From assembly GCA_001661245.1 (NCBI GenBank), contig KV454017.1, positions 305,927 to 360,881 of the forward strand: 54,955 nucleotides of DNA, read 5' to 3'. The stretch is from Pachysolen tannophilus NRRL Y-2460 (taxonomy: Eukaryota). Position 1 is the stretch's first letter. The number at the start of each line of letters is the position of its first letter. The translations under genes were made by a program, and so were the position numbers. Under the pieces are notes generated by a model. That model was not told where the DNA came from. It made no database searches and saw only the letters and a program-made list of their open reading frames with translations. Shown in pieces: positions 2,621 to 53,474 of this stretch.

Positions 2621-4177
2621 ATGAATATTTCAGTGGAGAATTCTCCTGTGATATATAATAATAACAGAAATAGCAATAACAACAATCAGCCCAGGAATCC
2701 TAGTTCGAAATCTGCATCGGTTAAAAATTCTCCAAAATTGATGAATATACCAGGATCAATTGAGTCTTTGTCAAAAATTAAATCAGATGAAAAAAATCAT
2801 AATACCATCATATCAGATGATATAAATGATTCCAAGAATCCAAGCACACAAATTAATGAAAACTTGCTGGGTGAACCAATACCTACACAATATATTGGTT
2901 TTAAATCAACGAAAAATTTCAGAGGTGCAAGTTTTAGTTCTTCAAGTAGTGGTTCTTCAAGTTACAGTTCAGATCCAGAATTATTGGAAACTTTAAGAGA
3001 ATACAAGACAAAAGATCAGTTATTCCAAGAAGAAGAACAAAGAAATAGGCATGGTAATTCAGCTCCATCTAATGACAATAATAATAATAACTATAGTCAT
3101 ATATCCTCATCACATGAAATACAGGAGCAAACAGTGAAAAACGATTTTAATGAAGCGCTGAAAGTGCAGAGCGCCAATAATGGGAAAGTTGAAACCCCCA
3201 CAGTAAAGAGTAAAATTACAAATGATAATGGACAACCAAGAGTACTTCCTAGAAATTTCATTGATTGTTCAAGAGATGACTTGATAGTATTAGTTGCAAG
3301 AATGTTGGTGTCTTTAATTTCAATAAACGATAATTTATCGCCACAAATATCATCACATCATTTAACTAGATTTCATTCAAGAGCACCACCTAATATTTCA
3401 GTTTTTTCATATCTTACGAGATTAGCACATTATTCTACATTAGAAAATGCAATATTGATTACAGCAATATATTACATAGATTTATTATCATTATCATATC
3501 CAACTTTTTTGATAAATTCATTAACTGTACATAGATTTTTGTTGACTGCATCGACTGTAGCTTCAAAAGGTTTATGTGATTCATTTTGTTCAAATAATCA
3601 TTATGCAAAAGTTGGAGGTGTTCATATAACAGAATTAAATTTGTTAGAAATGGAATTTTTAAATAAAGTTAATTGGAGAGTAATACCTAGAGATTTAAAT
3701 GGTTTAGATAAAAGAGGAAGTGTTTCAACAAAATCTTCATCAACAAATACATCAACATTTAACGAAAATAATTCCATTAAAAGAGAAAAATCTGGAGTTG
3801 GTTCTGCAAAAGATGTTTTAGATTTATATTATAGAAGAATGATACTGCTAGTTGGTAAAAATGTAGATGGTGATACAGATGAAATAGGTAATGGTTATAC
3901 ATATATATTGGATGATCTTCCAGGTAGTAATTCAGGTTCTGAAGAAAGTATACGGCAATATTCACAGTTACAAGAAGAGGAATTTAAGTGTCCTCCAGTA
4001 TTTATACCTACATCATCACAACTGTCATCAAAAAATCATCATAACGTTGACAGTACAAATTCGATCAAAAATAATTGTCAGTCACCTTTAAAAAGAGCTG
4101 CTGATCAAAATGATCGTGATTTTCAACATACAAGGGGTAAAAGGAGAACAGAAAAAATGATTGGTAAGCACAACTAA
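2621..4177 (+). CDS. Pho85 cyclin of the Pho80/Pcl6/Pcl7 family
   Basis: Cyclin box LTRFHSRAPPNIS...YYID...NSLTVHRFLL...SKGLCDSF...YAKVGG...ELNLLEMEFL with low-complexity flanks. Confidence 0.85.
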   Translation: MNISVENSPVIYNNNRNSNNNNQPRNPSSKSASVKNSPKLMNIPGSIESLSKIKSDEKNHNTIISDDINDSKNPSTQINENLLGEPIPTQYIGFKSTKNFRGASFSSSSSGSSSYSSDPELLETLREYKTKDQLFQEEEQRNRHGNSAPSNDNNNNNYSHISSSHEIQEQTVKNDFNEALKVQSANNGKVETPTVKSKITNDNGQPRVLPRNFIDCSRDDLIVLVARMLVSLISINDNLSPQISSHHLTRFHSRAPPNISVFSYLTRLAHYSTLENAILITAIYYIDLLSLSYPTFLINSLTVHRFLLTASTVASKGLCDSFCSNNHYAKVGGVHITELNLLEMEFLNKVNWRVIPRDLNGLDKRGSVSTKSSSTNTSTFNENNSIKREKSGVGSAKDVLDLYYRRMILLVGKNVDGDTDEIGNGYTYILDDLPGSNSGSEESIRQYSQLQEEEFKCPPVFIPTSSQLSSKNHHNVDSTNSIKNNCQSPLKRAADQNDRDFQHTRGKRRTEKMIGKHN

Positions 4178-5301: not shown

Positions 5302-5743
5302 ATAAAAAATAAAAAGATTAAAAAAAAAANAAAAAAACAAGATAACATAAAATAATAAAAGGATCAAGTATTTTTTTATCATATTGTACACCATTTCGTA
5401 TCTGTTACCAGTAGCATGAGAGAGAGAGGCTTACTTTAATTTTTGTTTTATATTTCTTCTACTTTTCGAAAACAATTCCTTTTATATATATATATATATA
5501 TATATTTCATTTCGATTTTCTAAATATTAATCTATATAATTTTAAATCTATTATTACTTACTTACTGCTTAAAACTTTGTAAGATCTTAGTGATTACTTT
5601 AAAATCAGTTTCTGCAGAACAAACAAAAAGAAAAGAAAAAGAAACATCTTATATACTTACCTCCCACAACTGGATATGGTTGTTCTTATTGAAAGTTGTT
5701 TCTCGTCACTGTCGTCACCATCGTCGTTACCCAATTTTTCACT

Positions 5744-11553: not shown

Positions 11554-12867
11554 ATGACGGAATCGATTTTGATAGTTGGTTGTGGTGTGTTTGGTTTATC
11601 AACAGCTGTTCATTTGGCTGAAAGAGGTGGTTATCAAGTTACTGCTATTGATTTGCTTCCAGTTCCTTCACAGTTTTCAGCTGCTAATGATTTTAACAAG
11701 ATAATAAGATGTGAATATACGGATTTCATCTATACGAAGATGGCAGTAGAAGCTATGAAACTTTGGAGATCAGATCCTATCTTTAAAGGAATATATTCAG
11801 AGTGTGGAAGAATTTTAATTACACCGGAACTTCATGTTGGTAGAAAAGAATTTGAAGAAGAAAGTATTAAGAATTTACAAAAAATTCCAGGAGAAGGCCG
11901 AAAGTTGGAATATTTTAAAGGTGGGAATGATCTTGCTAATAGATTTGATTTTTTAAATCTTAATTCTGTTAGCGAAACTACTGAAATCAAATGGAACCCA
12001 GAAGCTGGGTTGGCTCATGCTGCTAATTCATTAATAGCTTTATACAATAAAGCTGTCGATTTGGGTGTTAAGTTTATATTTGGTAAATCAGGAGAAGCCA
12101 TAAGGACTGTTTCTAAAAAAAATGGTAGAGATTATATTATAACAAAAGATGGTACGGAATATACAGCAGATAAAATTATTATATCTGCAGGCGCTTCAAC
12201 TGGGTTTATTGTTGATTTGAACCATCAACAATCTGCTACAGGTTTATTTGTTACTCATATTAAGCTTACACCACAAGAATATGAAAAATTTAAAAATATT
12301 CCAATTTTGTTTGATGCCGAAATGGGATATTTCTTCCCACCTGATTCAAAGACTCATGTTTTAAAAATTGCATTACCTGGTTCAGGTGCTTCAAACTTGG
12401 TGACAAGTCCTCATGATGAAAATGAAAAAATATCGTTACCAAGATACAAATTGGATTGTCCTACTGATACCATACCTTATATGGCAATAAGACAAGCAAG
12501 GCTGCTTTTGAAAAAATTTGTTCCAGAATTAGAAGATCATGAGTTGTTCAATAGCAAAGCATGTTGGATAGCAGATACTTCCGATTCACATTTTATCATT
12601 GATAAAGTTCCAAATTCCAAGAATTTATACGTTGCTACAGGAGACAGTGGACATGGTTTCAAATTTTTACCAAACATCGGAAAATACATTGTTGACAAGT
12701 TAGAAGGAAAGCTAGACCCAGAAATGGAATATTCCTGGCAGTGGAAACAAGATAGACCAGAGTTTGATCCCAATATGTGCAGCTGGAGAGTTGGAAGTGG
12801 AAACTTGGATTTTTCAGAAATCGAGTGGGCCAGAGAAGATGATAAGGGATGTATTATTAAATTGTGA
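11554..12867 (+). CDS. FAD-dependent oxidase of the sarcosine/pipecolate/saccharopine/fructosyl-amino-acid oxidase family
   Basis: IVGCGVFGLSTA Rossmann motif, SAANDFNKIIR, GYFFPP, CW at the expected flavinylation site, ATGDSGHGFKFLP. Confidence 0.9.
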   Translation: MTESILIVGCGVFGLSTAVHLAERGGYQVTAIDLLPVPSQFSAANDFNKIIRCEYTDFIYTKMAVEAMKLWRSDPIFKGIYSECGRILITPELHVGRKEFEEESIKNLQKIPGEGRKLEYFKGGNDLANRFDFLNLNSVSETTEIKWNPEAGLAHAANSLIALYNKAVDLGVKFIFGKSGEAIRTVSKKNGRDYIITKDGTEYTADKIIISAGASTGFIVDLNHQQSATGLFVTHIKLTPQEYEKFKNIPILFDAEMGYFFPPDSKTHVLKIALPGSGASNLVTSPHDENEKISLPRYKLDCPTDTIPYMAIRQARLLLKKFVPELEDHELFNSKACWIADTSDSHFIIDKVPNSKNLYVATGDSGHGFKFLPNIGKYIVDKLEGKLDPEMEYSWQWKQDRPEFDPNMCSWRVGSGNLDFSEIEWAREDDKGCIIKL

Positions 12868-13291: not shown

Positions 13292-16200
13292 ATGACTATT
13301 GCTGGAAACATAAAAATTGCTATTGATGTATGTGTAATTTTGAATTGGTTTTTTTTTTTTTGAATTATTCATCTGGACTAACAGGATTTTAAACTTATAG
13401 CGTGGTGGAACGTTTACTGATGTGCTTGCTATAATTCCAGGTAAAGAAGACTATGTTTTCAAATTGTTATCTGTTGACCCTTCGAATTATAAAGATGCTA
13501 ATATTGAAGGTATAAGAAGAGTATTGGAATATGCTACTGGTGAAAAGATTTCACGTGGAGTTCCATTAGATACTTCTAAGATTGAGAATATTAGACTTGG
13601 AACCACTGTAGCAACTAATGCGTTATTGGAGAGGAAAGGTGTTAGGTTTGCTTTATTGGTGACAAAAGGTTTCAAAGATTTATTACACATTGGTAATCAA
13701 TCACGTCCTAATTTATTTGATTTGAATATTCGTAAACCAGGTGTCTTGTATGAAAAAGTGATTGAAATTGAAGAAAGAGTTACTTTACCTGCTTTTTCAG
13801 AAGATTCTACAGGGTATCAAGCAAATGATTTGGTTGATAATGAAAAATATATCTTTGGTGAAACTAAAGAAGTGATTCAGATTGTAAAGCCTTTAAATAT
13901 CGAGAAATCTACTAAAGATTTAATTGAATTAAAAAATATTGGTATTAACTCAATAGCTATTTGTCTTGTTCATGGGTATAATTATCAGGAGCACGAGAAG
14001 ACATTAGGTGAGATTGCCAGAAAAATTGGATTCAAAAATATCTCTTTATCTCATGAGTTGTTACCAATGATCAAAGTGGTTAATAGAGGTCATTCAACAT
14101 GTATTGATGCATACCTTACTCCAATAATAAAATTGTACATTGAAAACCTTTTAAGTGGATTTCAAAAAGATTTTTACAAGTATACAAGAGTTGAATTTAT
14201 GATGTCCGATGGTGGTTTATGCCAATATGATAAATTCACTGGTTTGAAAGCTTTACTTTCAGGGCCTGCAGGTGGAGTTGTTGGTCATGCTCAAACTTGC
14301 TATGATCCTGAAGAAGGAACTTATACAATTGGGTTTGATATGGGTGGTACTTCAACAGACGTATCCAGATATTCAGGTGTTTATGATCATATTTTTGAAA
14401 CAACTACTGCTGGTATCAAAATAGCAGCTCCACAATTAGATATTAATACTGTTGCTGCAGGTGGAGGATCAATCTTAAAATACGAAAACGGGATTTATTT
14501 AGTTGGTCCTGAATCGGCTGGAGCTCATCCAGGTCCTGCTTGTTACCGTAAAGGTGGACCTCTAACGGTAACTGATGCAAATTTAATGTGTTCAAGAATA
14601 TTACCGGAGTTCTTCCCGAAGATTTTTGGGAAGAATGAAAATCAAGAATTAGATAAAGAAATTGTTAGACAAAAATTTCAAGATTTGGCTGATTTGATTA
14701 ATTCAGATCACCCTGAAGTTAATGCAAGATCTCCTTATGATATAGCTTTGGGGTTTTTAAAAGTTGCCAATGTTGCAATGGCTAAACCTATAAGGCAATT
14801 GACTGAAAATAAAGGTTTTGACGTTTCGAAACATAATTTAGCTTCTTTTGGAGGAGCTGGTGGTCAACATGCAAACTCATTGGCCAAGGTATTGAAAATG
14901 AAGAGAATCGTTATTCATAAATATTCATCGATTTTGTCTGCCTATGGAATTGCTTTGGCGGATGTTGTTCATGAAGCTCAAGAGCCGGCTTCTGCAGTGT
15001 ACTCATTAGACATTAAGCATAATCTATTGGCAAAATGTGAAATATTGAAGCAAAAGGTGAATAAAGAATTACTATCCCAAGGTGTAACTCCAGATATTGT
15101 TAATTACGACATTTTTTTCAACATGGGATATAAAGGGTCCGATTCTAGTTTAATGATTATGGATGAAAAGGGAGAAAAAGACTTTGATTTCCTCGAGAAA
15201 TTTTATCTTGTTCACCAAAGACAATTTTCCTTTAACGATAAAAGCAGAGAAGTCATTGTTAATGATATTAGGGTAAGAGGTAGCGGTAATATCAATAAGG
15301 TTAAGGAAAGATCACCTTTCAAAGATTTACTTGAGGTTGAGAAACATCAAGTTTCCAAGGGTATAGAAAAATTGAGTTGTCCGATCTACTTTGAAGAAGG
15401 ATTTTTGGATTCAAAGGTATATTTCCTAAACGACATTGGGATTGGAAGTATTATAGTAGGTCCAGCTTTAATTATAGATGCTACTCAAACCATTTTAGTT
15501 GAACCAGGATCAAAATTGACTATTTTACCCAGACATTTGATTATGGATTTATCAGAGGAAAGTCCAAATGTGGAGTTTAGTCAATCTCATGTTGATCCAG
15601 TTCAATTGTCAATTTTTTCACATAGATTTATGTCAATTGCAGAGTCTATGTGTACAACATTACAAAAGATATCAGTTAGTGCTAATATAAAAGAGAGAAT
15701 GGACTTTAGTTGCGCTCTATTTGATGAAGAGGGAAATTTGGTTGCTAACGCTCCTGCAGTTCCAGTTCATTTAAGTTCAATGTCATTTGCTGTTAAGTTC
15801 CAGATCAAGTATTGGGACGGTAATATAAATGAAGGTGATATTTTGGCCACAAATCATCCCAAAGCTATGGGCACACATCTACCAGACATCACCCTTATAT
15901 CTCCAATATTTGTTGATGGTCATATAAGATTTTACGTTGGTTCTCGTGCACATCATGCTGAGATTGGGGGTACTAAACCAGGATCTATGGATTCTTCTGC
16001 TACAGGACTAGATCAAGAAGGTGCAAAATTTGTTGCCTGGAAAGTAGTCAGCAAAAGCCAATTTGATTATGATGGAGTACAAAAATATTTCATTGAAGAA
16101 CCAAATTCTTACCCTGGATCTTCTCCTTCCAGAAAAGTTGCTGATAACATCTCGGATATCAAGGCTCAAATTGCTTCTAATAGAAAGGGAATTGATTTAT

Positions 16201-17315
16201 TGAGAGATGTGTTTACTGAGTTTGGTACAGACGTTGTCTTATTCTATATGAGAGCAATTAAGGATACTTCTGAAATTGCAGTTAGAAAATTCTTACAAAA
16301 ACTTGCCAGGGAAAATAGACATAGGTTACCGTTAACTTCAGTTGATTATATGGATGATGGTGCTCAAATTGCAATAAAAATTGACATTAATGAAGAGGAT
16401 GGCTCTGCAATTTTTGATTTCACAGGTACTTCTGAGGAAGCTTATAATTGCTATAATGCTCCTCGTGCTATCACATATGCTTGTATAACATACTGCTTAC
16501 GATGTCACATTACTGAGGGAGACCTACCTTTAAATGAAGGTGTCTTGGCTCCAATCAAAGTGATTATTCCTGAAGGAACCATTTTAAACCCAAGTGAAAC
16601 TGCTGCAGTTTCAGCAGGTAATGGCAATACTTCTCAAAAAATTACTGACACAATTTTGAAAGCTTTTGGAACTGTTGCGGCTTCTTACGGTTGCATGAAT
16701 GCTATATGTTTTGGACAAGGTGGTAATGACAAGAATGGGAAATTTATACGAGGTTTTGGGTTTTGCGAAACAATTGGAGGTGGTTCTGGTGCTGGTAATG
16801 GGTTTAATGGGTTCAGTGGTACTCAATGCCACATGACAAATACTTTAATGACCGATCCAGAGGTCTTAGAGAAGAGGTATCCTTGCATCTTATTACAATT
16901 TTCTGTCCGTGAAGGAACTGGAGGTAAAGGTAAGTGGCATGGAGGCAATGGTCTTATAAGAGAATTACAATTTACTTCACAATGCCATGCTTCTGTGTTA
17001 ACACAGCGTAGAACTTACGAACCTTACGGAATGGCAGGTGGCAAACCTGGCAAAAGAGGTGCAAACAGATTAGGAAGATGTCAAAAAGATGGAAGAATTG
17101 TTTGGAAATATCTAGGTTCCAACGCAGAGATTGAATTAAACATAGGTGATGTTCTCAAGATATCCACTCCAGGAGGTGGTGGGTACGGGAAACCTCAAGC
17201 AAGGACCCAAACGACCCAAACTCAACAAGAGAACCCCAATGAACTGTTCTACAAATTCCCAAGGTCAAGCGGCAGTCTAGCTCAGCTACAAGAAGCATTA
17301 TCTACTTCTCAATAG
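13292..17315 (+). CDS. OXP1: ATP-dependent 5-oxoprolinase (hydantoinase A/B fusion); 2 exons (13292-13327, 13401-17315)
   Basis: MTIAGNIKIAID|RGGTFTD restored by intron 13328-13400 (GTATGT, GACTAAC, TAG). GTTVATNALLERKG, GFDMGGTSTDVSR, NIKERMDFSCALF, TPGGGGYG. Confidence 0.93.
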
Positions 17316-24555: not shown

Positions 24556-25629
24556 ATGGATAGTTTAACTTTTTCACCATCAATTGGGTATCCTTTAGCA
24601 TACTTTAAAATTTTACCTAATCCTGAAATTTTTAAATTTCCTAGTTTTAAAGCGTTACCGTTATCGCCATTTAATGATGAACATGTTTTTTTAAATAAAT
24701 TATATGTGAATTCTTTAGATACTAGGGTACCATTTACTATAGCAATTGTTTATTTTACATCAGTTTATTTATGTAATAAATATATAAGACAAAGACAATT
24801 AAAACAATATTTATTAAAAAATGAGAGTATAAAAGATATAACAAAGATTAATTTTAAAAAATTACCACCAGCACCATTTAAATTTGCTAAAACAAAAATT
24901 TTCAAAATATTTGTTATTTTACATAATATATTTTTATGCGGATTTTCAATTTATAGTTTTATTGGAATGACAAAAAGCATATATAATAATTCTCATAAGA
25001 TAATTCCAAATATTTTTGAATTAAAAAATTTGAATTTTAGTAAAAATGAATTATTTTGGCAATCAATTTGTAATTTAGAAAATGGTATATGGTCAAATAA
25101 AAATAATTTAAAAGGTTTAGCATTTTATAGTTTTTGGTTTTATATATCCAAATTTTATGAAATATTGGATACAATCATAATTTTACTGAAGGGAAAACAA
25201 TCCTCAATTTTACAAAGTTATCATCATTCTGGTGCAATGATTAGTATGTGGGCAGGAGTTAGATTTTCATCACCACCAATATGGGTATTTGTCGTTTTTA
25301 ATTCATTTATTCATACAATAATGTATTTCTATTTTACCCTCTCTTGTTTACATATAAGAGTCCCCACTCTGTTCAAAAAATCTCTAACAAGCATGCAGAT
25401 CTGCCAATTCGTATCGGGTATCTCCTTACTGCTTTCACATATTTTTGTTAATTATTATGATAATCTAACTAAAGAATTCAAATCATGTATCTCAGATGGT
25501 GACCAAGCCCTGGCTTTATGGATAAATGTCATTTATTTGACTCCATTGACCATATTGTTTGGTGCATTCTATGTAGAAAGCTATAAAAATCCACCAAAAA
25601 CAATATTAACCCCAACCATAAAACCATAA
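24556..25629 (+). CDS. GNS1/SUR4 (ELO) family fatty-acid elongase-like protein
   Basis: FYISKFYEILDT, LQSYHH, FNSFIHTIMYFYF, LTSMQICQF. Confidence 0.88.
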   Translation: MDSLTFSPSIGYPLAYFKILPNPEIFKFPSFKALPLSPFNDEHVFLNKLYVNSLDTRVPFTIAIVYFTSVYLCNKYIRQRQLKQYLLKNESIKDITKINFKKLPPAPFKFAKTKIFKIFVILHNIFLCGFSIYSFIGMTKSIYNNSHKIIPNIFELKNLNFSKNELFWQSICNLENGIWSNKNNLKGLAFYSFWFYISKFYEILDTIIILLKGKQSSILQSYHHSGAMISMWAGVRFSSPPIWVFVVFNSFIHTIMYFYFTLSCLHIRVPTLFKKSLTSMQICQFVSGISLLLSHIFVNYYDNLTKEFKSCISDGDQALALWINVIYLTPLTILFGAFYVESYKNPPKTILTPTIKP

Positions 25630-25746: not shown

Positions 25747-26644
25747 NNNNNNNNNNNNNNNNNNNNNNNNNNNNNNNNNNNNNNNNNNNNNNNNNNNNNN
25801 NNNNNNNNNNNNNNNNNNNNNNNNNNNNNNNNNNNNNNNNNNNNNNNNNNNNNNNNNNNNNNNNNNNNNNNNNNNNNNNNNNNNNNNNNNNNNNNNNNNN
25901 NNNNNNNNNNNNNNNNNNNNNNNNNNNNNNNNNNNNNNNNNNNNNNNNNNNNNNNNNNNNNNNNNNNNNNNNNNNNNNNNNNNNNNNNNNNNNNNNNNNN
26001 NNNNNNNNNNNNNNNNNNNNNNNNNNNNNNNNNNNNNNNNNNNNNNNNNNNNNNNNNNNNNNNNNNNNNNNNNNNNNNNNNNNNNNNNNNNNNNNNNNNN
26101 NNNNNNNNNNNNNNNNNNNNNNNNNNNNNNNNNNNNNNNNNNNNNNNNNNNNNNNNNNNNNNNNNNNNNNNNNNNNNNNNNNNNNNNNNNNNNNNNNNNN
26201 NNNNNNNNNNNNNNNNNNNNNNNNNNNNNNNNNNNNNNNNNNNNNNNNNNNNNNNNNNNNNNNNNNNNNNNNNNNNNNNNNNNNNNNNNNNNNNNNNNNN
26301 NNNNNNNNNNNNNNNNNNNNNNNNNNNNNNNNNNNNNNNNNNNNNNNNNNNNNNNNNNNNNNNNNNNNNNNNNNNNNNNNNNNNNNNNNNNNNNNNNNNN
26401 NNNNNNNNNNNNNNNNNNNNNNNNNNNNNNNNNNNNNNNNNNNNNNNNNNNNNNNNNNNNNNNNNNNNNNNNNNNNNNNNNNNNNNNNNNNNNNNNNNNN
26501 NNNNNNNNNNNNNNNNNNNNNNNNNNNNNNNNNNNNNNNNNNNNNNNNNNNNNNNNNNNNNNNNNNNNNNNNNNNNNNNNNNNNNNNNNNNNNNNNNNNN
26601 NNNNNNNNNNNNNNNNNNNNNNNNNNNNNNNNNNNNNNNNNNNN
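25747..26644. other. Assembly gap (N run)
   Basis: Run of N flanked by long poly-T tracts. Confidence 1.
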
Positions 26645-32559: not shown

Positions 32560-33618
32560 ATGTCCAAGAATTGGAAAGCTCCAAATGTCACGCCAGAGAG
32601 TATTTCTGATTTTAACATTGAACCGGATAATGGTGATCATGCAAATCCGTTTGAAGATTATGATACTATTATAGAACCTGATGTTCCTGTGAGCCAAGGT
32701 GCAAACCTGAGTTCTAAGCCAAAGGCTTCTTCAACTCAATATACTAATAATTCAAATAATGGTAATGGAAGTGGTAGCGGCGGGAATTTTTTCTCAAATT
32801 TTTCTAATTATGCTAATCCATTCAATGCATCTTTAAATTCTATCAATAATGATATTAATAAGAATATTCATGTTAGAGAACGTCAGTTTAGTGGTGGTAA
32901 TACATTAGATGAATCGGTATTTGTTACCATTAAACGTGATTTAGATAAAATTGGTGATAAATTATTACAAATCTTATGGCCATTGGGGTTAAGATCAAAG
33001 TTAATAAAAGTTCAAAATTTTACAAGAATAGGGAATTCTCCAAATAATAATGATACTGCTAATGAAATAGCAGGTGAAGATTCTGAAGAAATTTCAAAAG
33101 AAGCAATAATAAAAATTTTAGATTGGGATTTATGGGGACCATTAGTTATAACTTTAGGTTTTAGTTTAATCTTAACTTATTTACAAATAAGATCACTTGA
33201 TAAGAAATTTGAAACTAAAGCTTCACAAATATTTAGTGGTTCTTTTTCCTTATTATGGGCCTCTATACTGGTATTATCTTTAAACATTCAGTTATTATCT
33301 CCATTCCATGATAAATCAAATGCTGTTTCAAGTGGTACAATAAGTTTATCATTTTTCCAATGCGTTAGTATTTTGGGATATTCAATTTTCCCAATTGTCT
33401 TTGGTGGATTTCTATCGATTTTCCTCAAATGGAAATATATAAGAATTATTTTATTGGCAATTTTGTCAAGTTGGTCTATTTATGCTGTATATTTGATTTT
33501 AAAAATTGTCAACAATAGTGGTGCTAATAGAGGTAAAGGAGATGATAGAATTTTTTTGATTGTTTACCCTATTGGTCTAGTGTTTGGAGTATTTAGTTGG
33601 TTATGTGTTATTAGCTAA
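32560..33618 (+). CDS. YIP4: Yip1-domain Golgi membrane protein (Yip4-like)
   Basis: TLDESVFVTIKRDL, DWDLWGPL, SFFQCVSILGYSIFP, LIVYPI. Confidence 0.75.
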   Translation: MSKNWKAPNVTPESISDFNIEPDNGDHANPFEDYDTIIEPDVPVSQGANLSSKPKASSTQYTNNSNNGNGSGSGGNFFSNFSNYANPFNASLNSINNDINKNIHVRERQFSGGNTLDESVFVTIKRDLDKIGDKLLQILWPLGLRSKLIKVQNFTRIGNSPNNNDTANEIAGEDSEEISKEAIIKILDWDLWGPLVITLGFSLILTYLQIRSLDKKFETKASQIFSGSFSLLWASILVLSLNIQLLSPFHDKSNAVSSGTISLSFFQCVSILGYSIFPIVFGGFLSIFLKWKYIRIILLAILSSWSIYAVYLILKIVNNSGANRGKGDDRIFLIVYPIGLVFGVFSWLCVIS

Positions 33619-33728: not shown

Positions 33729-34463
33729 TCATAAATATGTTAAATCTACAAGTTCTTCTGGGATATTTAATTCTTTCCTTAAATCGGATTTTGGAATTGG
33801 ACGTATTGGATCATTACTAAAATGATATAATAACAGTTCAATATTATCAGTATATATCTCTGCTGCATTTTTTAAATTTTCAAAATTTTTTTGTAAATTT
33901 TCAAGAGTCTTGGGATCATTTTCTTTTAAAAGTTCTAATTTTTCCGTATTTTGAAATTTAATTTGATTTAAATTTTCTAATTCTTTAATTAAATCAGATC
34001 TTTTTGTAAATTTATCAATTTTTTCAATTCTTTTATCTAATTCTAGTCCAATTGTTTCTTCAACATCGGTTTTCTTTTGTCTTAAATCTTGAATCTTATT
34101 ACTTAACGTTGTATGTTCTTGATTTAATTTTTTTTGAATTTCAAATTCGAAAACCCAATATAAATTTGATATTCCACATTTTTCACAATTCACCAAATTT
34201 TCATCCAATAAATTTTGTAAAACTTCTTTAATCTGCATCGACGAAATTCCAGTAAATTTGGACCCAGCATTTTCAACTTCTTTAATATTATAGAACTCAT
34301 GTTTTCTCTTAAAAAAATCCAATAGTTTAATTTTTTTCTCTTCTAATGATAATCCTCTCTTGGCAACCTAAACAAAAACCCGTTAGCACAAACTAAACAT
34401 AATTTATTAAAAAGAGAAGAAAAAAAAACAAAAAAGAATTAAAATTCTACTAGTTCATACCAT
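33729..34463 (-). CDS. MND1: Meiotic recombination protein Mnd1; exon 1 is the ATG alone (34463-34461), exon 2 is 34367-33729
   Basis: Splicing 34460-34368 (GTATGA, TGCTAAC, TAG) gives MVAKRGLSLEEKKIKLLDFF. Also KEVLQNLLDENLVNCEKCGISNLYWVF and YTDNI. Confidence 0.92.
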
Positions 34464-37271: not shown

Positions 37272-39887
37272 ATGTCTCAAAGATCTTCAAGTTCGAGTTC
37301 TCTGAAACACCAAATGCTGCTGCCGCTGGCGCATCAACAACAACAGCAACATCAACAGGTAGTTGGACAATACATTATTGGGCCCGAAATAGGTAAAGGT
37401 TCATTTGCTAATGTTTATAAAGGTTATGATAAATATACAAATCAAACAGTGGCAATAAAATCTGTTTTTAGATCAAAATTGAAGAATAAAAAATTATTGG
37501 AAAATTTGGAAGTTGAGATTTCTATATTGAAGACTTTGCAACATCCACATATCGTACTGCTATTGGATTGCCAACAGACTCAACAACATTTCCATTTATT
37601 TATGGAATATTGTTCATTGGGTGATTTAAGCTATTTTATAAGGAAAAGAGATCAATTGGTAAAGACTCATCCATTAATTAATTCTATCTTAGAAAGATAT
37701 CCATCACCGGTTAATAGTCATGGTTTAAATAAGATACTTGTGATAAATTTTTTGAAACAGTTAGCGTCTGCACTAGAATTTTTAAGAGATCAAAATTTAG
37801 TTCATAGAGATATTAAACCTCAAAACTTGTTATTAAGTTATCCACTACATTCTAAAAAAGAGTTTTCAGATAAACATTATGTTGGTATGTGGGAATTACC
37901 AATTTTAAAGATTGCGGATTTTGGATTTGCTAGAATTTTACCAAATACCTCATTACTGGAAACCTTGTGTGGATCTCCGTTATATATGGCTCCAGAGATA
38001 TTAAGGTATGAAAAATATAATGCTAAGGCTGATTTATGGTCTGTTGGGGCTGTCTTGTATGAAATGGCAGTTGGTCATCCTCCATTTAAAGCTTCAAATC
38101 ATGTTGAATTATTGAGAAAAATTGAAAGAACAAAAGATAAAATTGTTTTCCCACAATCTGCTCAAGTGTCAGAAGATGTTATTCGATTAATTTGTGGTTT
38201 GCTAAAATGTAATCCAACTGAAAGAATGGGATTTCAAGAATTTTTCCAAGATTCTTTAATCTTATCAGATCTAAGAAGTAGTGAGGAGCCATTGGATGGA
38301 ACTAATTTAGACGAAAATTTATTTATCAGTGAATATTTACCAAATAATAATCATAGTCAACAGCATAATCTTGTTCAACGTGGTTCTAAGAAACTGCAAA
38401 GTTCATCATCTAATTCTTCAAATAACAATATAGATCTGATAAAAGAAGAAAAAAGTTTATCTCCAGGTGATTCTTTACTAATCACTCTGAGTAGGAATAC
38501 AGCTACAAAATCTCACGAAGAGATTAAAAGTTTCCTGGAAGATAAGATACCGTCTGGTGAGGATTTTACGAATTCTATTACAAGTAAGGCTAAGAACAAT
38601 AATATTAATAATCAGAAAGATGATATAGTAGTTGAAAGAGATTATGTTGTAGTTGAGAAAAGAACCGTGGAAGTAAATGCTTTAGCTGATGAATTGCGCC
38701 ATGCTGGTAACGCTGGTAAAGTTAATGCTAATCATAATCAAAGTTATGCTTTAGACAGCCATAGTCGTAGTGGTAGTGGTGGTGCTAGTGGTAATGCCGG
38801 TGATGTAACAAATGGTGCTGGTAGTAGCCATAATAAGTCAAATGCAATTGCCATACAATCACCAACGAATTTGATCCGTCGGTATTCATCTTCATCTAGG
38901 TCTTCTTCAGGTACATCAAATAGGAGACCAAGTTTCAATGAAAGAAGAGTTTCTATATCAATTAGCCCAACTAATGCCCTAACGAAAGCTTTAGGTGCTG
39001 CTTCAACAAGATTGTTTGGTGGCCAAATAAGTTCTCCTTATGTTATTGAAAATGCTAATGTTGCAAATAGCACCAATAATCAGAGTAATATTAATAACAA
39101 ACAATTAGCTGCGTCATCGTCTTTTTTCGTTAACAAGGAAGACTTAGAAATTATATCTTCATTGGAATCATTGGCTACAAAAGCTCATGCAATATCGTTG
39201 TTTGCAGAAGTTAAATTTTCGCAATTGTTACCATTACCTCCATCTTCATCTGACTCTGCTGTTACCGACAGCGATTCGAAGACTTATTTGCCTCCATCAA
39301 TGATAAAGACTATATGTGAAGAAGGAGTTGTGCTTTATGTTAAAGCTTTATCTTTGTTATCAAAGGCCATGGATTTAGCAAGTCAATGGTGGGGTAAAAA
39401 CAATAATAAGCAGCTTAATCCAAGATTAATTGAATTAGTTGAATGGATTAGAGAGAGGTTCAATTCAGCTTTAGAAAAAGCGGAATTTTTGAGATCAAAA
39501 TTAAATGAATCAAACAAAGCTTTGAATATTAATTCTATTTCATTATCAAGTCAAATCCAAATTATTCCTGAAAAATTAATATTCACTAGAGCCTTAGAAA
39601 TTGCTAGGAAAGCTGCCGAAGATGAGGCGAAACAAATCGATTTGCAAAACTGTGAATTGTCATATTCCACTTCTATATGGATGTTAGAAGCGATATTGGA
39701 CCAAGACAGTAATGATGAAGATGTCGTGATCTTAGATGACGATGACAAATCTCAGGTTGAGAGATACATTGTCACTATAGGGAACAGATTGAATGTATTG
39801 AGAAAAAAGTTGGATCAATTGGAAGAAAATAGTAGTAACAGTGTTGATAATAAGGTGAATAGGGAGTTTGAAGAAGTGGATGGATGA
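37272..39887 (+). CDS. ATG1: Autophagy Ser/Thr kinase Atg1
   Basis: EIGKGSFANVYKG, HRDIKPQNLLL, DFGFARILPNTSL[CTG]ETLCGSPLYMAPE, ERDYVVVEK, C-terminal EAT/MIT-like region. Confidence 0.96.
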   Translation: MSQRSSSSSSLKHQMLLPLAHQQQQQHQQVVGQYIIGPEIGKGSFANVYKGYDKYTNQTVAIKSVFRSKLKNKKLLENLEVEISILKTLQHPHIVLLLDCQQTQQHFHLFMEYCSLGDLSYFIRKRDQLVKTHPLINSILERYPSPVNSHGLNKILVINFLKQLASALEFLRDQNLVHRDIKPQNLLLSYPLHSKKEFSDKHYVGMWELPILKIADFGFARILPNTSLLETLCGSPLYMAPEILRYEKYNAKADLWSVGAVLYEMAVGHPPFKASNHVELLRKIERTKDKIVFPQSAQVSEDVIRLICGLLKCNPTERMGFQEFFQDSLILSDLRSSEEPLDGTNLDENLFISEYLPNNNHSQQHNLVQRGSKKLQSSSSNSSNNNIDLIKEEKSLSPGDSLLITLSRNTATKSHEEIKSFLEDKIPSGEDFTNSITSKAKNNNINNQKDDIVVERDYVVVEKRTVEVNALADELRHAGNAGKVNANHNQSYALDSHSRSGSGGASGNAGDVTNGAGSSHNKSNAIAIQSPTNLIRRYSSSSRSSSGTSNRRPSFNERRVSISISPTNALTKALGAASTRLFGGQISSPYVIENANVANSTNNQSNINNKQLAASSSFFVNKEDLEIISSLESLATKAHAISLFAEVKFSQLLPLPPSSSDSAVTDSDSKTYLPPSMIKTICEEGVVLYVKALSLLSKAMDLASQWWGKNNNKQLNPRLIELVEWIRERFNSALEKAEFLRSKLNESNKALNINSISLSSQIQIIPEKLIFTRALEIARKAAEDEAKQIDLQNCELSYSTSIWMLEAILDQDSNDEDVVILDDDDKSQVERYIVTIGNRLNVLRKKLDQLEENSSNSVDNKVNREFEEVDG

Positions 39888-40491: not shown

Positions 40492-41756
40492 TTATTTGAA
40501 GTCTTTGTATGTCCATTTTTCTGTAATTTTTGGAGAATATTTCCTTTTTTTAATAACCGGTCTTCTAGATTCAATCATACCTTTATTTTGAAGTTTCATC
40601 ATTTCATCGTATAACAAATTTCCTTCCGGTTTCAATTTTCTTAATGAGTCTGATAATTCGTCTGATAATTTAACTTCTAATTGTTCATTAATGTTATCAT
40701 ACTTGAATAGTCTTTTCTTTCTACGTGTATTTTTAGAACTTGGTTCTTCAACAATTTTAGATTTTTGTTCTTGCTTTTGCTTTTGTTTTTCCAAAACTTC
40801 CTTCTCAAATTGATCTATTTTTTCTAATTCTTTAACTTGAGCTTTTAACGATTTTAATTGATTTTCCAACTCCAACCTTTGCTTGTTTCTTTTCTGTTTA
40901 TTTCTTTGAGCTTTTGTTTTCTGCTTATTAACAACTGGTGGATTAATCGACAATGACGACTTTTCATTTAAAGTTGTTTCAATTTCATTTATTTCATCCT
41001 CGTCTTCTTGTTCAGCTTCACTATCTGAAAGTTCCTGATTATCATCAATAGTTTTAATCAACTCTTGAATTCTTTCTTTTTCCTTTTCTAATGCAACTCT
41101 CTTATCTTCATTTTCCTTTTCTTTTAAATATTCTTTATTGATTAACCCTTCCCAACTTTGTAAAGATGGATTATACGATTTACCCTCATGCGGAATAATT
41201 TCAGTTTCTTTAACAGAAATAGGTTTTTCTTGTAAAGTTAATGGTGGTTTAGAAGCCTTTGTCCAACTTTTAGAACTAAATTTTTTTGAATCTTTATTTG
41301 CTTTAATACCATTATCGCCCCAAACGTCATAAGCTTTTGTATTAATAATTCCATTTCTTTCTAATTCAGTCTTTGCCTGAGTCTCTCCTTGAACTCTCCC
41401 AGCGGTCTTCATCAATCTGTGAACTTCTTTCTTAGAAACACCTTCAATTTTTTTTTCCTTTCATTACGCTCAACTTTTAAAGCTGGTGCCTTCGATCTTT
41501 GAGATAAAATTTCCAGAGATTTCAAAACTTTAACATCTCTACCTAATTTCTTCGACACTATATCATCACCCGTTGTGTCAATAGTGAATAACTCACCATG
41601 TTCTAATTCATCGATATTCTCAGTACCCAATTGTCTCAAGTCTTCTCTCTTGGCTTCAATTGCTTCTTCAATATCATCTATATCTATGTTTTTTCTCCAG
41701 GCCTTCTTCCCCTTACGAGAAGGCTGCTGTCTTTGCTGAGGTCTATCTACTTCCAT
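40492..41756 (-). CDS. NOP53: Ribosome biogenesis protein Nop53, split by a one-base frameshift in an A9 run at 41448-41456
   Basis: N-part QPSRKGKKAWRKNIDI and LFTIDTTGD; C-part HEGKSYNP, LSDELSDSLRKLKPEGNLL, TEKWTYKDFK. Confidence 0.9.
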
Positions 41757-42144: not shown

Positions 42145-43407
42145 CTAGTCTAAGGACAATCCCAATGCTTGACGTTGGGATTTGGAATTTGGGTCGTAGA
42201 ATGGAATTTCTGCTAATGAGGTCACTCTGGTTCCATGTCTTGGTTCTTTACCTTCGTAATCCCAAGATGCTGAATGTTGAGAAATTCTGTTATCCCAAAG
42301 AGCTGAGGTACCCAAACCAGGTTTTGAAGATTTCCAATTAAATCTGACTTGAATATCCAAATTTCTTTCGTAAACACTGTACAAGAATTCTAGGATAATT
42401 TTACTTTCTTCTGGTTCCAAGCCAACAATATACTGAGTATGACCTCTATTAACATATAAGGATTTCCAACCTGTAGCAGGATGAGTTCTAACAAGTGGAT
42501 GTTTTCTCAAGACTTTTTTCCCGCCGCTGAAGGGATCATTACGATCAAGATAATTATGCAAAGAAGCATGAACAGCTTCTTTACCTTCCAAAAATTTTTG
42601 TAAAGCTGGAGAAAGCTTATCAAATGCTGCATAACCAGAAACCCAACTTGTATCACCTCCAACATCTGGGATTGCATCAAGATGAAGATGCGTAATACCA
42701 GCTGGCTGGAATTCGTGTGGAAGATCGGTATGCCATTTTGCAGTGCCCACTTTCCCACCATTTTTAAAATTGATCTTAACTCCATTGGCTCTGGCAAGAT
42801 CTGGCCAAATAACAGTAGTACCATTTAGAGGTGTACCATCACCATTTTTCAACCCAGGAACTCTAGGCAGTTGAGCATGAACTTCTACATTCCCCCAATA
42901 TTTGCCCAATTCTAACTGTTTTTGAGGAGATAGATCTTGATCTCTAAAGAAAACAACTACTCTCTCTGCAATCAACAAAGCCAACTCATCTTTTTGCTGA
43001 TCAGTTAAATCAGACAATTGTAATCCAACAATTTCTGTCCCAATATGTTTAGTTAGATCTTTAACTTCCTTAGCAGCACTAAATAATGACTTCTTTTGAG
43101 GATCAGCATTTTTACCTCTGTCGGTAAATGGAACTTCTTGACTCCTAATTGCCTCAACTTCATCAACATAAACAGGAATGTTTTCAGCAGAAGGAATATA
43201 AGGATAACCTTTACTTAAATCAATCCCATATTTCTCAAATCTAGCACGAGTGGTATCAGGAAGCTTTAGTTGAATATTTTTTTTCAGATTGAATTTCAAA
43301 GCATTGACCTCATGAACAATTTTGTCAAGATCGTCAACAGCATTTTCGTGACTGTTTTCTTTCAGTTTAGTTGAAGTAGTTGAAGATAGAGTAGCAATTG
43401 GTGACAT
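42145..43407 (-). CDS. JLP1: Alpha-ketoglutarate-dependent sulfonate dioxygenase (TauD/Jlp1 family)
   Basis: ERVVVFFRDQ, WHTD (HxD), GGDT, HPLVRTHPATGWKSLYVN, WDNRISQH. Confidence 0.88.
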   Translation of the reverse strand: MSPIATLSSTTSTKLKENSHENAVDDLDKIVHEVNALKFNLKKNIQLKLPDTTRARFEKYGIDLSKGYPYIPSAENIPVYVDEVEAIRSQEVPFTDRGKNADPQKKSLFSAAKEVKDLTKHIGTEIVGLQLSDLTDQQKDELALLIAERVVVFFRDQDLSPQKQLELGKYWGNVEVHAQLPRVPGLKNGDGTPLNGTTVIWPDLARANGVKINFKNGGKVGTAKWHTDLPHEFQPAGITHLHLDAIPDVGGDTSWVSGYAAFDKLSPALQKFLEGKEAVHASLHNYLDRNDPFSGGKKVLRKHPLVRTHPATGWKSLYVNRGHTQYIVGLEPEESKIILEFLYSVYERNLDIQVRFNWKSSKPGLGTSALWDNRISQHSASWDYEGKEPRHGTRVTSLAEIPFYDPNSKSQRQALGLSLD

Positions 43408-48432: not shown

Positions 48433-50691
48433 TTATTCTATTTGGTCCTTATAGTTGGTTCTATTGTTGCCAGTGTCTCTTGAGACGACTCTTTTTCTTG
48501 TTGTGTTTGCTGTGTTTCTTCGTGTTGGTGGTTCCTGTTCTGTGTCGTCTTTATCGATATTTTCAAATAGTTGTTCCATGTATTGTCTATGCTCTTGTAA
48601 TTCTGGGTAATCGTAATAATCCTCATCATCGGCTTTCTTTGCTGAAGATTGAGCACTGGCCTGATTGTTTTCATCCGATTCATTTTCTTGTAGATCTGGA
48701 TTCATGACTCTGAGCTTGGATCTTCTCTTGGAAGAAACCAATATTTGTACGTCTATATCTTCTATTTCATCATCATCTTCAATTTCGTCATTCACTTCTC
48801 GTGGTTGTGAATGAGTCAAGTCGGTGAATCTATCATGTAAATGGGTTGGTTCTGGTTCAAAATATGTACTTGTTGTCAATACGGATCTCGAATCATTTAT
48901 CATTTCTTTTCGATTACCATCCACTATACTTCCATTCTCATATATCAAGTGTAACGTTGACCTTGATTTTTCAGAAAGACAACTGAAACGCTCATTACCA
49001 TTACTCGATGTAGTGTCTTCTTCTCTAATAGAAAAAGGGGTTGACATAAAAGTTGAATTTCTTCTAATGGAATTTTGAATTGTAGAAAAAGTTGATGAAA
49101 GACTTCTCCTAATGAAACTAGGTGTATGCGGCTGTTGTGGTGTGGCTGGCGCACTAGATGTGTCAATTCTCATGCTTGTTCGCACTTGGTTACTCAGAGT
49201 TCTTGAAGCGGCAGAAGCAGAAGGAGCAGCAGCAGCAGCAGTTGCTGCTGTTGTGGTTGTTGGTAAATTAGGTAATTCTGCAAGTGGTCTTTTCTTCTTT
49301 TGCATATGCAGGATGTTATTTTCATATTCCTCTCTCTTGCGGCTCCAGGACTCTATTGATAAATTATCACTTTCTCCTAAACTATTAAATTTATTATGCC
49401 TTCCGATCCCCAGTGCTCCTCCTCCTCCTCGACCATGAGAACTCATTGATGGCTTCTGAGATAAAGTGTTATAAAATTCCATAATATCAAAATTGTCAGC
49501 ATCGCTTGAAATATGTTTTTTCTTTTTATATACAAAGATATAATAACATATACCTGCACTAATGAGTAATATTGGAACAATAGTCAAAACTGTTGATAAT
49601 GTGATTACTAAAGTCTTGTGTGAATTTTTTTGCTTATAATCAACAGAAGATATAGATTCCATATCCAGTGACACATCAAATAAGTTTATTTTATAATTGC
49701 TATCAGATCTTTTTTTCTTTGTAGAAGATGAATCTGAACTTGAATTTGTTATAGTAATCAAAGTATCATAAATTATACATGACCCTAAAATTTCACTCAA
49801 GTTTAAATTTGAAGGGACATAACTATCCATTGATTCCCAATTCCAACTACTACTAGTACTGGACATATTTAATTTCACAAAATTTGGTGTCGCTAATTCA
49901 TCAATTACTTCACCTCCAACCATCATCACACTATTAATTGCAAAACTAGATTCCTGTGAATTTTCTACTAAATAATTCAGATCTTTTGTATTAAAAATTG
50001 GTAATAATGATGAAAATCTTCTGGAATTTATTGTAGTATTAGAAGCTGTCATTGTTTTAAAAGACCAAGTTTCATATTGCCATAAAGCTAATTGTTCTAA
50101 ACTTACCCATCCATAAGTCGATTGGCCTCCAACAATAATTTGAGTTTCATAATTGACTAATAAATTTGAAGCTCCATAAAAATTTGTTGGGGTTACAGAG
50201 GTTGAAAAATTTTGGAAAGTTAAAGTAGTAACATCAAACAGTAACAATCTACTTGTGATATCCGAACTATTTGATGGTGAAATTCCACCGTAGATGAATA
50301 TAATATCATCATCATCCAATGTTGTAAGGTAATTCGAATACTGATAAAATGGAACGGACTCATTAGATAAACTTAAAGAATACCATATATCTTCATCTGA
50401 ATCGTATTTTTGTAAACCTATATCTTCTTTTTCAGTTTCATAAAACGCATAGAGTTGATTATTTGCAATAACTAATGAACCATTTGAAGGTGGCGAGGCC
50501 AAAATATCAGTCACTTGTGAATCATTTGTAAATTTATCGTTAAAACTCAAAGACACGAAATCGTTATTTGATAGTCGAATATAAACAGTTGTATTTTCAT
50601 ATGAATAAAGGGCTTGCTGTACTATTGTATCTTGTGCCTGAACCCAACTTACTGAAAGCAGAATAAACGATACTAGCACCGATGTTCTCAT
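48433..50691 (-). CDS. Type I membrane protein with Kelch-like extracellular region and Ser/Thr-rich cytosolic tail
   Basis: Signal peptide, repeated hydrophobic-GG motifs (IFIYGG, IIVGG, MMVGG), one TM followed by KKKK, tail motif LRVMNPD. Confidence 0.7.
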   Translation of the reverse strand: MRTSVLVSFILLSVSWVQAQDTIVQQALYSYENTTVYIRLSNNDFVSLSFNDKFTNDSQVTDILASPPSNGSLVIANNQLYAFYETEKEDIGLQKYDSDEDIWYSLSLSNESVPFYQYSNYLTTLDDDDIIFIYGGISPSNSSDITSRLLLFDVTTLTFQNFSTSVTPTNFYGASNLLVNYETQIIVGGQSTYGWVSLEQLALWQYETWSFKTMTASNTTINSRRFSSLLPIFNTKDLNYLVENSQESSFAINSVMMVGGEVIDELATPNFVKLNMSSTSSSWNWESMDSYVPSNLNLSEILGSCIIYDTLITITNSSSDSSSTKKKRSDSNYKINLFDVSLDMESISSVDYKQKNSHKTLVITLSTVLTIVPILLISAGICYYIFVYKKKKHISSDADNFDIMEFYNTLSQKPSMSSHGRGGGGALGIGRHNKFNSLGESDNLSIESWSRKREEYENNILHMQKKKRPLAELPNLPTTTTAATAAAAAPSASAASRTLSNQVRTSMRIDTSSAPATPQQPHTPSFIRRSLSSTFSTIQNSIRRNSTFMSTPFSIREEDTTSSNGNERFSCLSEKSRSTLHLIYENGSIVDGNRKEMINDSRSVLTTSTYFEPEPTHLHDRFTDLTHSQPREVNDEIEDDDEIEDIDVQILVSSKRRSKLRVMNPDLQENESDENNQASAQSSAKKADDEDYYDYPELQEHRQYMEQLFENIDKDDTEQEPPTRRNTANTTRKRVVSRDTGNNRTNYKDQIE

Positions 50692-51137: not shown

Positions 51138-52368
51138 TCAGGCAACGACTGAGCGAGCAAATTCTCTTGATTTTTGTATCAAGACAGCATCTGCCAATAC
51201 CAAAGCTGCCATAGATTCTACAATTGGTACAGCTCTAGGAACAACACTTGGATCATGTCTACCTCTAGCAGCTAATATACCTTCTTCACCATCATAAGAG
51301 GAGGTAGTTTGGTCTTGAGAAATGGTTGCTGCAGGCTTGAATGCCACAGAAAAATAAATATTTTCACCATTACTGATACCACCTTGAATACCACCAGAAT
51401 TATTTGTCTTTGTTCTAAGTTTACCTGTTGTTGGATCAAGATAAAATGGATCATTATGTTTTGAACCTGGTATAGTAGTACCAATAAAACCTGATCCAAT
51501 TTCAAAACCTTTTGTTGCTGGGATTGAGAGCATAGCATGTGCCAACATTGCTTCCAACTTATCAAAAGCAGGTTCACCTAAACCAATTGGCAAATTTCTT
51601 ATTACACATGTAACAACCCCACCAATGGAATCTTTTAAATCTCTATAGTGTTCAATAATCTTTGTCAATTTATCCTGGATTTCAAGATCAGGACAACGGA
51701 TTGGACCAACTTCATCAACTTGTTCTCTTGTCACAGTATTTAATAATTTTAAGAAACTTTCAGATCTTGGATCTCTATCAATAGAGACTTCACCTACTGC
51801 TGAAACAAAAGCAACAATTTCAACATTATTAACTTTTTTCAAAAATTTCTCTGCAATACCACCAGCTGCAACTCTTCCAATAGTTTCTCTTGCAGATGAT
51901 CTTCCACCACCTGATGAAGCTTTAATACCATATTTTTGCAAATAAGTAAAATCAGCATGAGAAGGTCTTGGATAAATGTCTGTTTCCGAATAATCATGAG
52001 GTCTTTGATCTTGATTACGAACTAACATTCCAATAGGTGTACCTAAAGTCTTACCATTTTCAGTACCACTATGGATTTCAACTTTATCCTTCTCATCTCT
52101 TGGTGTTGATAATTTGGATTGACCCGGTCTTCTCCTTGATAACTGAGGTTGAATATCAGCCTCAGTTAAGTCCATTCCAGGAGGAATACCATCAACGATA
52201 CAACCGACCGATTTACAATGAGATTCTCCATAAGTAGTTACACCTGCAAGAAAAAAAAAAAAAATAAAAATTTTTTTTTTAACTGTTAATATACATCCAC
52301 AAAAAAAATCCAACTATTTATTTCTTCATTATTTCTTACTTACGGAAAAGATGACCAAAAGTTGACAT
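51138..52368 (-). CDS. ARO2: Chorismate synthase; 2 exons (52368-52344, 52243-51138)
   Basis: Splicing 52343-52244 (GTAAGT, TATTAAC, CAG) gives [17 protein letters not shown]. Also [22 protein letters not shown]. Confidence 0.96.
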
Positions 52369-52655: not shown

Positions 52656-53474
52656 ATGATGATGATGATGATTTCAATTGGTGATCCGATAGTGGTGACA
52701 GCTATAGTGGGGTTAATTGTTGTGTTGGTTTTAGCTGGGGTTTTCCATAAGGAATTTTTATTTGGATTTTTCAAAAATGATCAAAAAACATTTTTAATAT
52801 GTGGTCCAAATAACAGTGGTAAGACAAGTTTATTTTATTTGTTGGCTACAGGTAAAGTTCCTTCATATCCACCTCAGATGTCTCAGGTACCGAATTTTAA
52901 AGAAAATTATCAATTACCATCTAGTGCGAAGGTATCTATAGGAGAGAATTTCAAATTAATTGATTATCCAGGTCATCCAAAGTTATTAAATCTTTATTTA
53001 TATAAAGATTTAAAAAATAAAAAATTTCTTAAAAATTGTAAAGGAATAATATTTGTTTTAGATTCTTCATCAATTAATGAATTTGAAATTGGTAAGATGT
53101 TATATGAGATTTTATCTAAAACAGAATTTTTACCAAATGGAGTAGATATATTAGTTGCTTGTAATAAATCAGATTTATTTCAAAGTAAGCCAGTATTTAA
53201 AATTAAAGAGATTTTGGAACTGGAAATGAATAAGATAAGGATTAATAATAGTAAGAATATCAATAAGATTGATTCAAGTGAGGGTGACATTGTAGATGGA
53301 GGTGAAGAAGATTTTTTAACTATTAGTAGTGGTAGTGGCAGTGGCAGTGGTAGCAAAAGTTCAAAATTTACATTTGATCAATTAGAAGGAAATTTTGATT
53401 TCTTGGATGGGAGTGTTAATAAGCAAAAAATTGACAAATGGGAATGTTGGATGGTAGAAAGGGCAGTCAACTAA
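52656..53474 (+). CDS. SRP102: Signal recognition particle receptor beta subunit
   Basis: N-terminal TM, GPNNSGKTSLF, LIDYPGHPKL, DILVACNKSD. Exact start among tandem ATGs is uncertain. Confidence 0.88.
   Translation: MMMMMISIGDPIVVTAIVGLIVVLVLAGVFHKEFLFGFFKNDQKTFLICGPNNSGKTSLFYLLATGKVPSYPPQMSQVPNFKENYQLPSSAKVSIGENFKLIDYPGHPKLLNLYLYKDLKNKKFLKNCKGIIFVLDSSSINEFEIGKMLYEILSKTEFLPNGVDILVACNKSDLFQSKPVFKIKEILELEMNKIRINNSKNINKIDSSEGDIVDGGEEDFLTISSGSGSGSGSKSSKFTFDQLEGNFDFLDGSVNKQKIDKWECWMVERAVN

Follow-up and report, generated by a model that had tools for sequence, protein, structure and literature searches.

Because reassignment of sense codons in nuclear genomes is very rare, spotting a case from raw sequence is a good call. 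Such a case had been proposed for the stretch considered here (hereafter the window), which comprises 54,955 nucleotides of Pachysolen tannophilus NRRL Y-2460 (assembly GCA_001661245.1, contig KV454017.1, positions 305,927 to 360,881 of the forward strand): from the letters alone, the codon CUG appeared to be decoded as alanine (Ala) instead of leucine (Leu) or serine (Ser), as established for the Pachysolen/Nakazawaea clade of yeasts. According to the excerpted text of PMC5951914, the Ala clade consists of Pachysolen, Nakazawaea and Peterozyma, and in reassigned clades CUG is rare and found mainly in poorly aligned regions. For Pachysolen itself, the available part of PMC4937558 (2016) describes a tRNA(CAG) that has G3:U70 and A73 and lacks the long variable arm that charging with Leu requires. 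The same part reports liquid chromatography with tandem mass spectrometry of strain NRRL Y-2460 (PRIDE data set PXD003898), in which 907 CUG positions were fully supported and 97.2% of them were Ala; a second residue was seen at only 8 positions, and CUG was no more ambiguous than AUG. In the NCBI list of genetic codes, table 26 bears the name of the Pachysolen tannophilus nuclear code. We conclude that CUG is almost certainly read as Ala in the nuclear genes of the window, by a tRNA-Ala of CAG anticodon and according to genetic code 26. This is supported by the columns of aligned homologues, by the public annotation of the same genes and by the published experiments, as given in the excerpt of PMC4937558.

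All the codons on which the sequence-only reading relied are indeed CTG in the sequence. The open reading frame (ORF) of an Atg1-type kinase (37272..39887, forward strand; Pkinase and ATG1-like MIT1/MIT2 domains) contains ten of them, at codons 11, 16, 17, 19, 96, 229, 375, 389, 406 and 422. Codon 229 (37956..37958) lies in frame in the activation loop, within TCA TTA CTG GAA ACC TTG TGT, codon 96 (37557..37559) is equally in frame within CAT ATC GTA CTG CTA, and codons 16, 17 and 19 (37317-37322 and 37326-37328) form the N-terminal run CTG CTG CCG CTG. The other quoted positions, codon 211 of an ELO-family elongase (25186..25188, forward strand) and codon 237 of a Yip1-domain protein (33268..33270, forward strand), were re-read and are also CTG.

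Homologues were collected for three proteins of the window, the Atg1-type kinase (150 best representatives), the elongase (119) and a TauD-family dioxygenase (119), and CTG was read as X in the queries so that the query would not bias the alignments. The TauD statistics were taken on 116 sequences, with the near-identical public copy and three Pachysolen paralogues excluded. Each of the 20 residues was scored as the sum of the logarithms of its column frequencies, with a pseudocount added, over the CTG columns of at least 80% occupancy; 9 of the 17 CTG codons of the three proteins lie in such columns, and the other 8 in columns below this threshold. One of the nine, Atg1-375, has a column that is 82% Pro, and its flanks are unconserved low-complexity sequence, for which reason likelihoods are given with and without it. 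Over the eight remaining columns the log-likelihood is -14.7 for Ala, -27.4 for Leu, -29.3 for Val and -31.8 for Gly, with Ala ahead of Ser by 18.4, and over all nine columns it is -20.3 for Ala and -33.0 for Leu. The tabulation of residues at CTG columns that had been proposed as a check therefore ranks Ala at the top of the 20 residues over either set of columns, although two of the nine have a Leu majority. The same score put the true residue on top for 21 of 21 other codons of these three genes, including rare ones with 1 to 8 occurrences, and none of 10,000 random sets of eight true-Leu columns reached the observed Ala-minus-Leu score of +12.7. Columns in which Ala is the commonest residue number 3 of 9 under CTG versus 2 of 142 under the other Leu codons of the queries (Fisher p = 0.0014), and columns of at least 90% Ala number 2 of 9 versus 0 of 142 (Fisher p = 0.003), so that the pattern exceeds what chance would give.

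The two near-invariant CTG columns, Atg1-229 and elongase-292, are at least 96% Ala and without Leu; Ser is also absent from both. At Atg1-229 the 150 homologues have Ala 143, Thr 3, Val 1 and a gap 3 times, that is, Ala in 143 of the 147 with a residue, so that the proposed Ala is strongly supported at this site. Among solved kinases, the corresponding residue is Ala in ULK1 and ULK2 and Lys in ULK3. Elongase codon 292 (25429..25431, forward strand) falls in a column of Ala 114 and Gly 5 among 119 homologues. The column of Atg1-96 is more varied (Ala 31, Glu 23, Ser 23, Gly 18, Arg 13, Gln 11, Lys 5, others, and 13 gaps, n = 150); with Ala as the commonest residue (31/137), mainly polar residues in the remainder, Ser at 17% and Leu at about 2%, it also supports Ala, and in the ULK1/2 chains Ala is paired to both Atg1 sites, 96 and 229. 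Codon 180 of the TauD-family dioxygenase (42868..42870, reverse strand) has a column of Val 54, Ala 35, Gln 11, Thr 10, Gly 5 and one each of His, Ile and Ser among 119 homologues, without Leu, and the column of TauD-41, another CTG, is variable. Distant bacterial TauD relatives in the PDB gave Leu or Tyr at codon 180, a pairing superseded by the 119 fungal homologues with their Val and Ala. A search of the PDB gave no match for the elongase and none for the Yip protein. Three sequencing runs from two studies were mapped to Atg1, and just 18-24-base pieces could be placed, covering no CTG of interest.

Public protein collections already carry Ala at these codons. Two public proteins, P0001 and P0121, have Ala at 4 of 4 and 7 of 7 CTGs, respectively, and no other mismatch to the ORFs of the window. 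The table-26 translation of Atg1 is identical to a public entry letter for letter, whereas the table-1 and table-12 versions are absent, and the table-26 translation of the Yip protein, with Ala at codon 237, is likewise an exact entry; both are in NCBI, UniRef and nr. A third public protein, P0272, which NCBI names PACTADRAFT_86783 of Pachysolen tannophilus NRRL Y-2460, aligns to 96% of the TauD ORF at 99% identity, whereas the next-best matches reach at most 72%. It has Ala at both CTG positions that it has in common with that ORF, including TauD-180. The DNA of the window thus matches a named Pachysolen protein, and the resemblance to the established code of the Pachysolen clade is borne out in the most direct way, the window being Pachysolen itself.

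The TauD ORF (42145-43407, reverse strand, 420 aa) and the 443-aa public model P0272 agree only from about ORF residue 20 onwards. As their N-termini differ, the published gene model must begin at a different start or include a 5' intron. The CTG at codon 15 of the ORF is inside the differing part.

The frequency and placement of CTG are also in line with an Ala-code genome. Codons were counted over the 25 ATG-initiated ORFs of at least 150 aa in the window, whose G+C content is 30%. CTG accounts for only 65 of 12,236 codons (stops counted), versus 609 TTA and 282 TTG, and is depleted from conserved sites; the P. tannophilus genome as a whole has roughly 16,800 CTG codons. This scarcity, together with the 8 of 17 CTGs in columns of less than 80% occupancy, agrees with what the excerpt of PMC5951914 reports for reassigned clades. 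CTG occurs at least once in 17 of these ORFs. It is absent from the other eight (at 992, 4738, 9257, 17780, 20625, 40492, 51138 and 53481), which encode a Ras-type GTPase, Pho88, an MFS transporter, UCH, DUF1749, Nop53, chorismate synthase and Vfa1. All of these except the MFS transporter and Vfa1 are among the best-conserved proteins of the window, in agreement with the avoidance of CTG at conserved sites reported in the same excerpt (PMC5951914). Elsewhere, an eisosome-like protein has 8 CTGs, a 1299-aa kinase 8 (all outside the kinase domain), an ArfGAP 4, and two ORFs without a Pfam family 3 each, and in all five proteins they sit in low-complexity sequence.

The absence of a visible tRNA gene, stated in the sequence-only reading, was confirmed for the readable part of the window, where ARAGORN found no tRNA gene and Rfam gave no match. 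This result is valid for the readable part only, because 898 bases between the elongase and a sugar-transporter gene (25747-26644) are N; a further single N is at 5330. The run of N is an assembly gap or a withheld stretch and could contain a small RNA gene. With the tRNA taken from the literature, the proposed mechanism is that a Pachysolen tRNA-Ala had its anticodon mutated to CAG, so that CUG would be decoded as Ala. Alanyl-tRNA synthetase recognises its tRNA by the acceptor stem (G3:U70, A73) and ignores the anticodon, so that the mutated tRNA is still charged with Ala.

Several observations count against reading CUG as Ala. Among the 9 CTG columns, 2 have Leu more often than any other residue, which is so for only 1 of the 73 columns that lie under GCN codons (Fisher p = 0.03). 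Both columns belong to the elongase: codon 211, with Leu 104, Ala 7, Val 4, Met 3 and Ser 1 of 119 (87% Leu), and codon 319 (25510..25512, forward strand), with Leu 83, Phe 14, Met 11, Ile 6, Val 3 and Ala 2 of 119 (70% Leu; 0.697). Codon 211 had been put forward as falling in an Ala column; it is a CTG codon as claimed, but since its homologues mostly have Leu the example is a weak one, the few Ala rows including matches named Geotrichum, Dipodascopsis and Lipomyces. For the elongase alone, Leu fits about as well as Ala, as estimated by hand from the column counts, and just 0.2% of draws of eight true-Ala columns score as low as CTG does. A test on the hydropathy and residue composition of the five residues on each side of all 65 CTGs also placed Ala below Leu (order of centre residues: Gln, His, Arg, Pro, Leu, Ala), but the test did poorly on several control codons, ranking the true residue only 8th, 12th and 10th for CTA, CTC and GTG. 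Moreover, Ala in the public translations shows only which code the annotators chose, and the tRNA and peptide support is taken from the literature.

The standard code, under which CUG would be Leu and the Ala-like columns a product of chance, can draw on elongase 211 and 319 and on elongase codon 272 (25369..25371, forward strand), whose column is variable and hydrophobic (Ile 41, Leu 22, Trp 16, Val 12, Phe 9, Ala 8, Met 3, Gly 3 and others, n = 119). It would, however, require Leu at Atg1-229 and elongase-292, where no homologue has it, and at TauD-180, where it is found in 0 of 119; none of the 142 true Leu codons lies in a column of at least 90% Ala, no draw of true-Leu columns reaches the score of CTG, and the proteomics in the excerpt of PMC4937558 contradicts it. 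We regard this explanation as improbable in the extreme. There is just as little to be said for Ser, as decoded in Candida (table 12) or in the Ascoidea and Saccharomycopsis clades. In its favour are the Ser paired with codon 189 of the signal recognition particle (SRP) receptor beta subunit in the S. cerevisiae chain, the Ser share at Atg1-96 and the many CTGs within Ser-rich low-complexity stretches. Nevertheless, Ser trails Ala by the 18.4 log units given above, does not occur in either near-invariant column and accounts for 0-3% of residues in the elongase CTG columns; no public entry matches Atg1 translated by table 12; and the named match is Pachysolen, which is outside both Ser clades in the excerpt of PMC5951914.

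Some CTG columns are of the Ala type and others of the Leu type, and it is this mixture, seen in neither control class, that speaks for a dual decoding in which CUG would be mostly Ala, with Leu at some sites or under some conditions, comparable to the Ser/Leu decoding of Ascoidea asiatica. Stochastic decoding of CUG does exist in another yeast (PMC6041473, from its excerpted text), and of the three rivals this is the only one to draw any support from the window, through the two Leu-type elongase columns. Two such columns in one membrane protein are nonetheless a thin basis, and Ala is present in both (7/119 and 2/119). The published share of Ala, the mere 8 positions with a second residue, a CUG as unambiguous as AUG and a tRNA without the arm required for Leu charging, all from the excerpt of PMC4937558, also oppose it, and we consider dual decoding very unlikely.

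With CUG read as Ala, the mixed columns raise the question of where the reassigned codons came from. Outside the Ala-type columns, CTG often stands where homologues have residues whose codons are one base away from it: Leu (elongase 211 and 319), Val or Gln (TauD 180), Gln (Pho80 409) and Pro (Atg1 375). CTG is one base from TTG/CTN, GTG, CAG and CCG but two from any GCN, so that new Ala-CTG codons would frequently arise by a single-base change at Ala-tolerant sites that hold Leu, Val, Gln or Pro in related proteins. The pattern hints at such an origin, the sites being too few for more. The plainer reading of elongase 211 and 319 is accordingly that of new single-base changes from TTG or CTN at Ala-tolerant sites of membrane helices. 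It is also conceivable, if rather doubtful, that some Pachysolen CUGs at well-conserved Leu columns are surviving ancestral Leu-CUG codons, with a forced change from Leu to Ala, or sites at which some Leu is still inserted. If true, this would qualify the published view that CUGs are mainly at conserved Ala positions; the same view holds that Pachysolen CUGs coincide with those of standard-code yeasts only at poorly conserved positions.

Pairwise alignments to solved structures contribute five positions, counting the ULK1/2 pairing with Ala given above, and at none of them does an orthologue have Leu. In the SRP receptor beta subunit, codon 189 (53220..53222, forward strand) corresponds to Ser in the yeast chain 1nrj_B and to Lys in two mammalian chains. 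Opposite codon 317 of an FAD oxidoreductase resembling fructosyl-amine oxidase (12502..12504, forward strand), the four PDB alignments listed show Lys twice, Arg once and Ala once. Codon 409 of a Pho80-type cyclin (3845..3847, forward strand) corresponds to Gln of the PHO80 chain 2pk9_B, and codon 135 of the Mnd1 ORF (33834..33836, reverse strand) to Cys of the Mnd1 chain 4y66_A. A pairing of codon 355 of the sugar transporter with Val or Glu was not trusted, as it falls in a gapped loop. Seven CTGs are present in a 752-aa protein (48433-50691, reverse strand) with a signal-peptide-like start, a membrane span, a long Ser/Thr-rich tail and a weak Kelch match under the Pfam cut-off; a word-indexed homologue search with this Kelch-domain membrane protein had only the protein itself among the matches listed, and relatives may exist.

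Some gene starts in the window also deserve mention. The frame of a 5-oxoprolinase-type gene (13401-17315, forward strand) is open from 13401 over 1304 codons, with its first in-frame ATG at 14067, and its Pfam match opens directly with Hydantoinase_A; an exon farther upstream probably holds the real start. Three ATG-initiated ORFs of the reverse strand begin inside their Pfam profiles, those of Mnd1 (33729-34367) at position 30 of 60, chorismate synthase (51138-52313) at 26 of 327 and Nop53 (40492-41460) at 112 of 399. As their frames remain open farther upstream, 5' exons or other start sites are suggested for these three genes.

Given genetic code 26 in Pachysolen, every CTG in the genes of the window encodes Ala, and translation by the standard code gives Leu for Ala at 65 positions in 17 of the 25 larger ORFs, including the activation loop of Atg1. 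The proposal that CUG is Ala here is correct but already known and adds nothing new to biology: the code was first described in this very species, NCBI lists it under a separate table, and it already underlies the public translations of these genes. Compared with the described Pachysolen code (table 26), the window comes from the same organism and shows the same reading as Ala, the same rarity of CTG and the same placement at poorly conserved sites, and there is no difference in kind, although 2 of the 9 alignable CTGs lie here in columns of 70-87% Leu. The CUG-Ser1 code of Candida (table 12) is alike in that a tRNA of a different family, with a mutated anticodon, captured CUG from Leu, and in that CTG is rare and mostly at non-conserved sites (PMC5951914, in the excerpt available); it differs in the residue, which is Ser there, a reading that fits the window 18.4 log units worse than Ala. 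The stochastic decoding of Ascoidea asiatica, where Ser and Leu tRNAs compete for CUG, would likewise give mixed CUG columns, but it needs two species of tRNA(CAG), whereas Pachysolen is reported, in the available part of PMC4937558, with only tRNA-Ala(CAG) and an unambiguous Ala.

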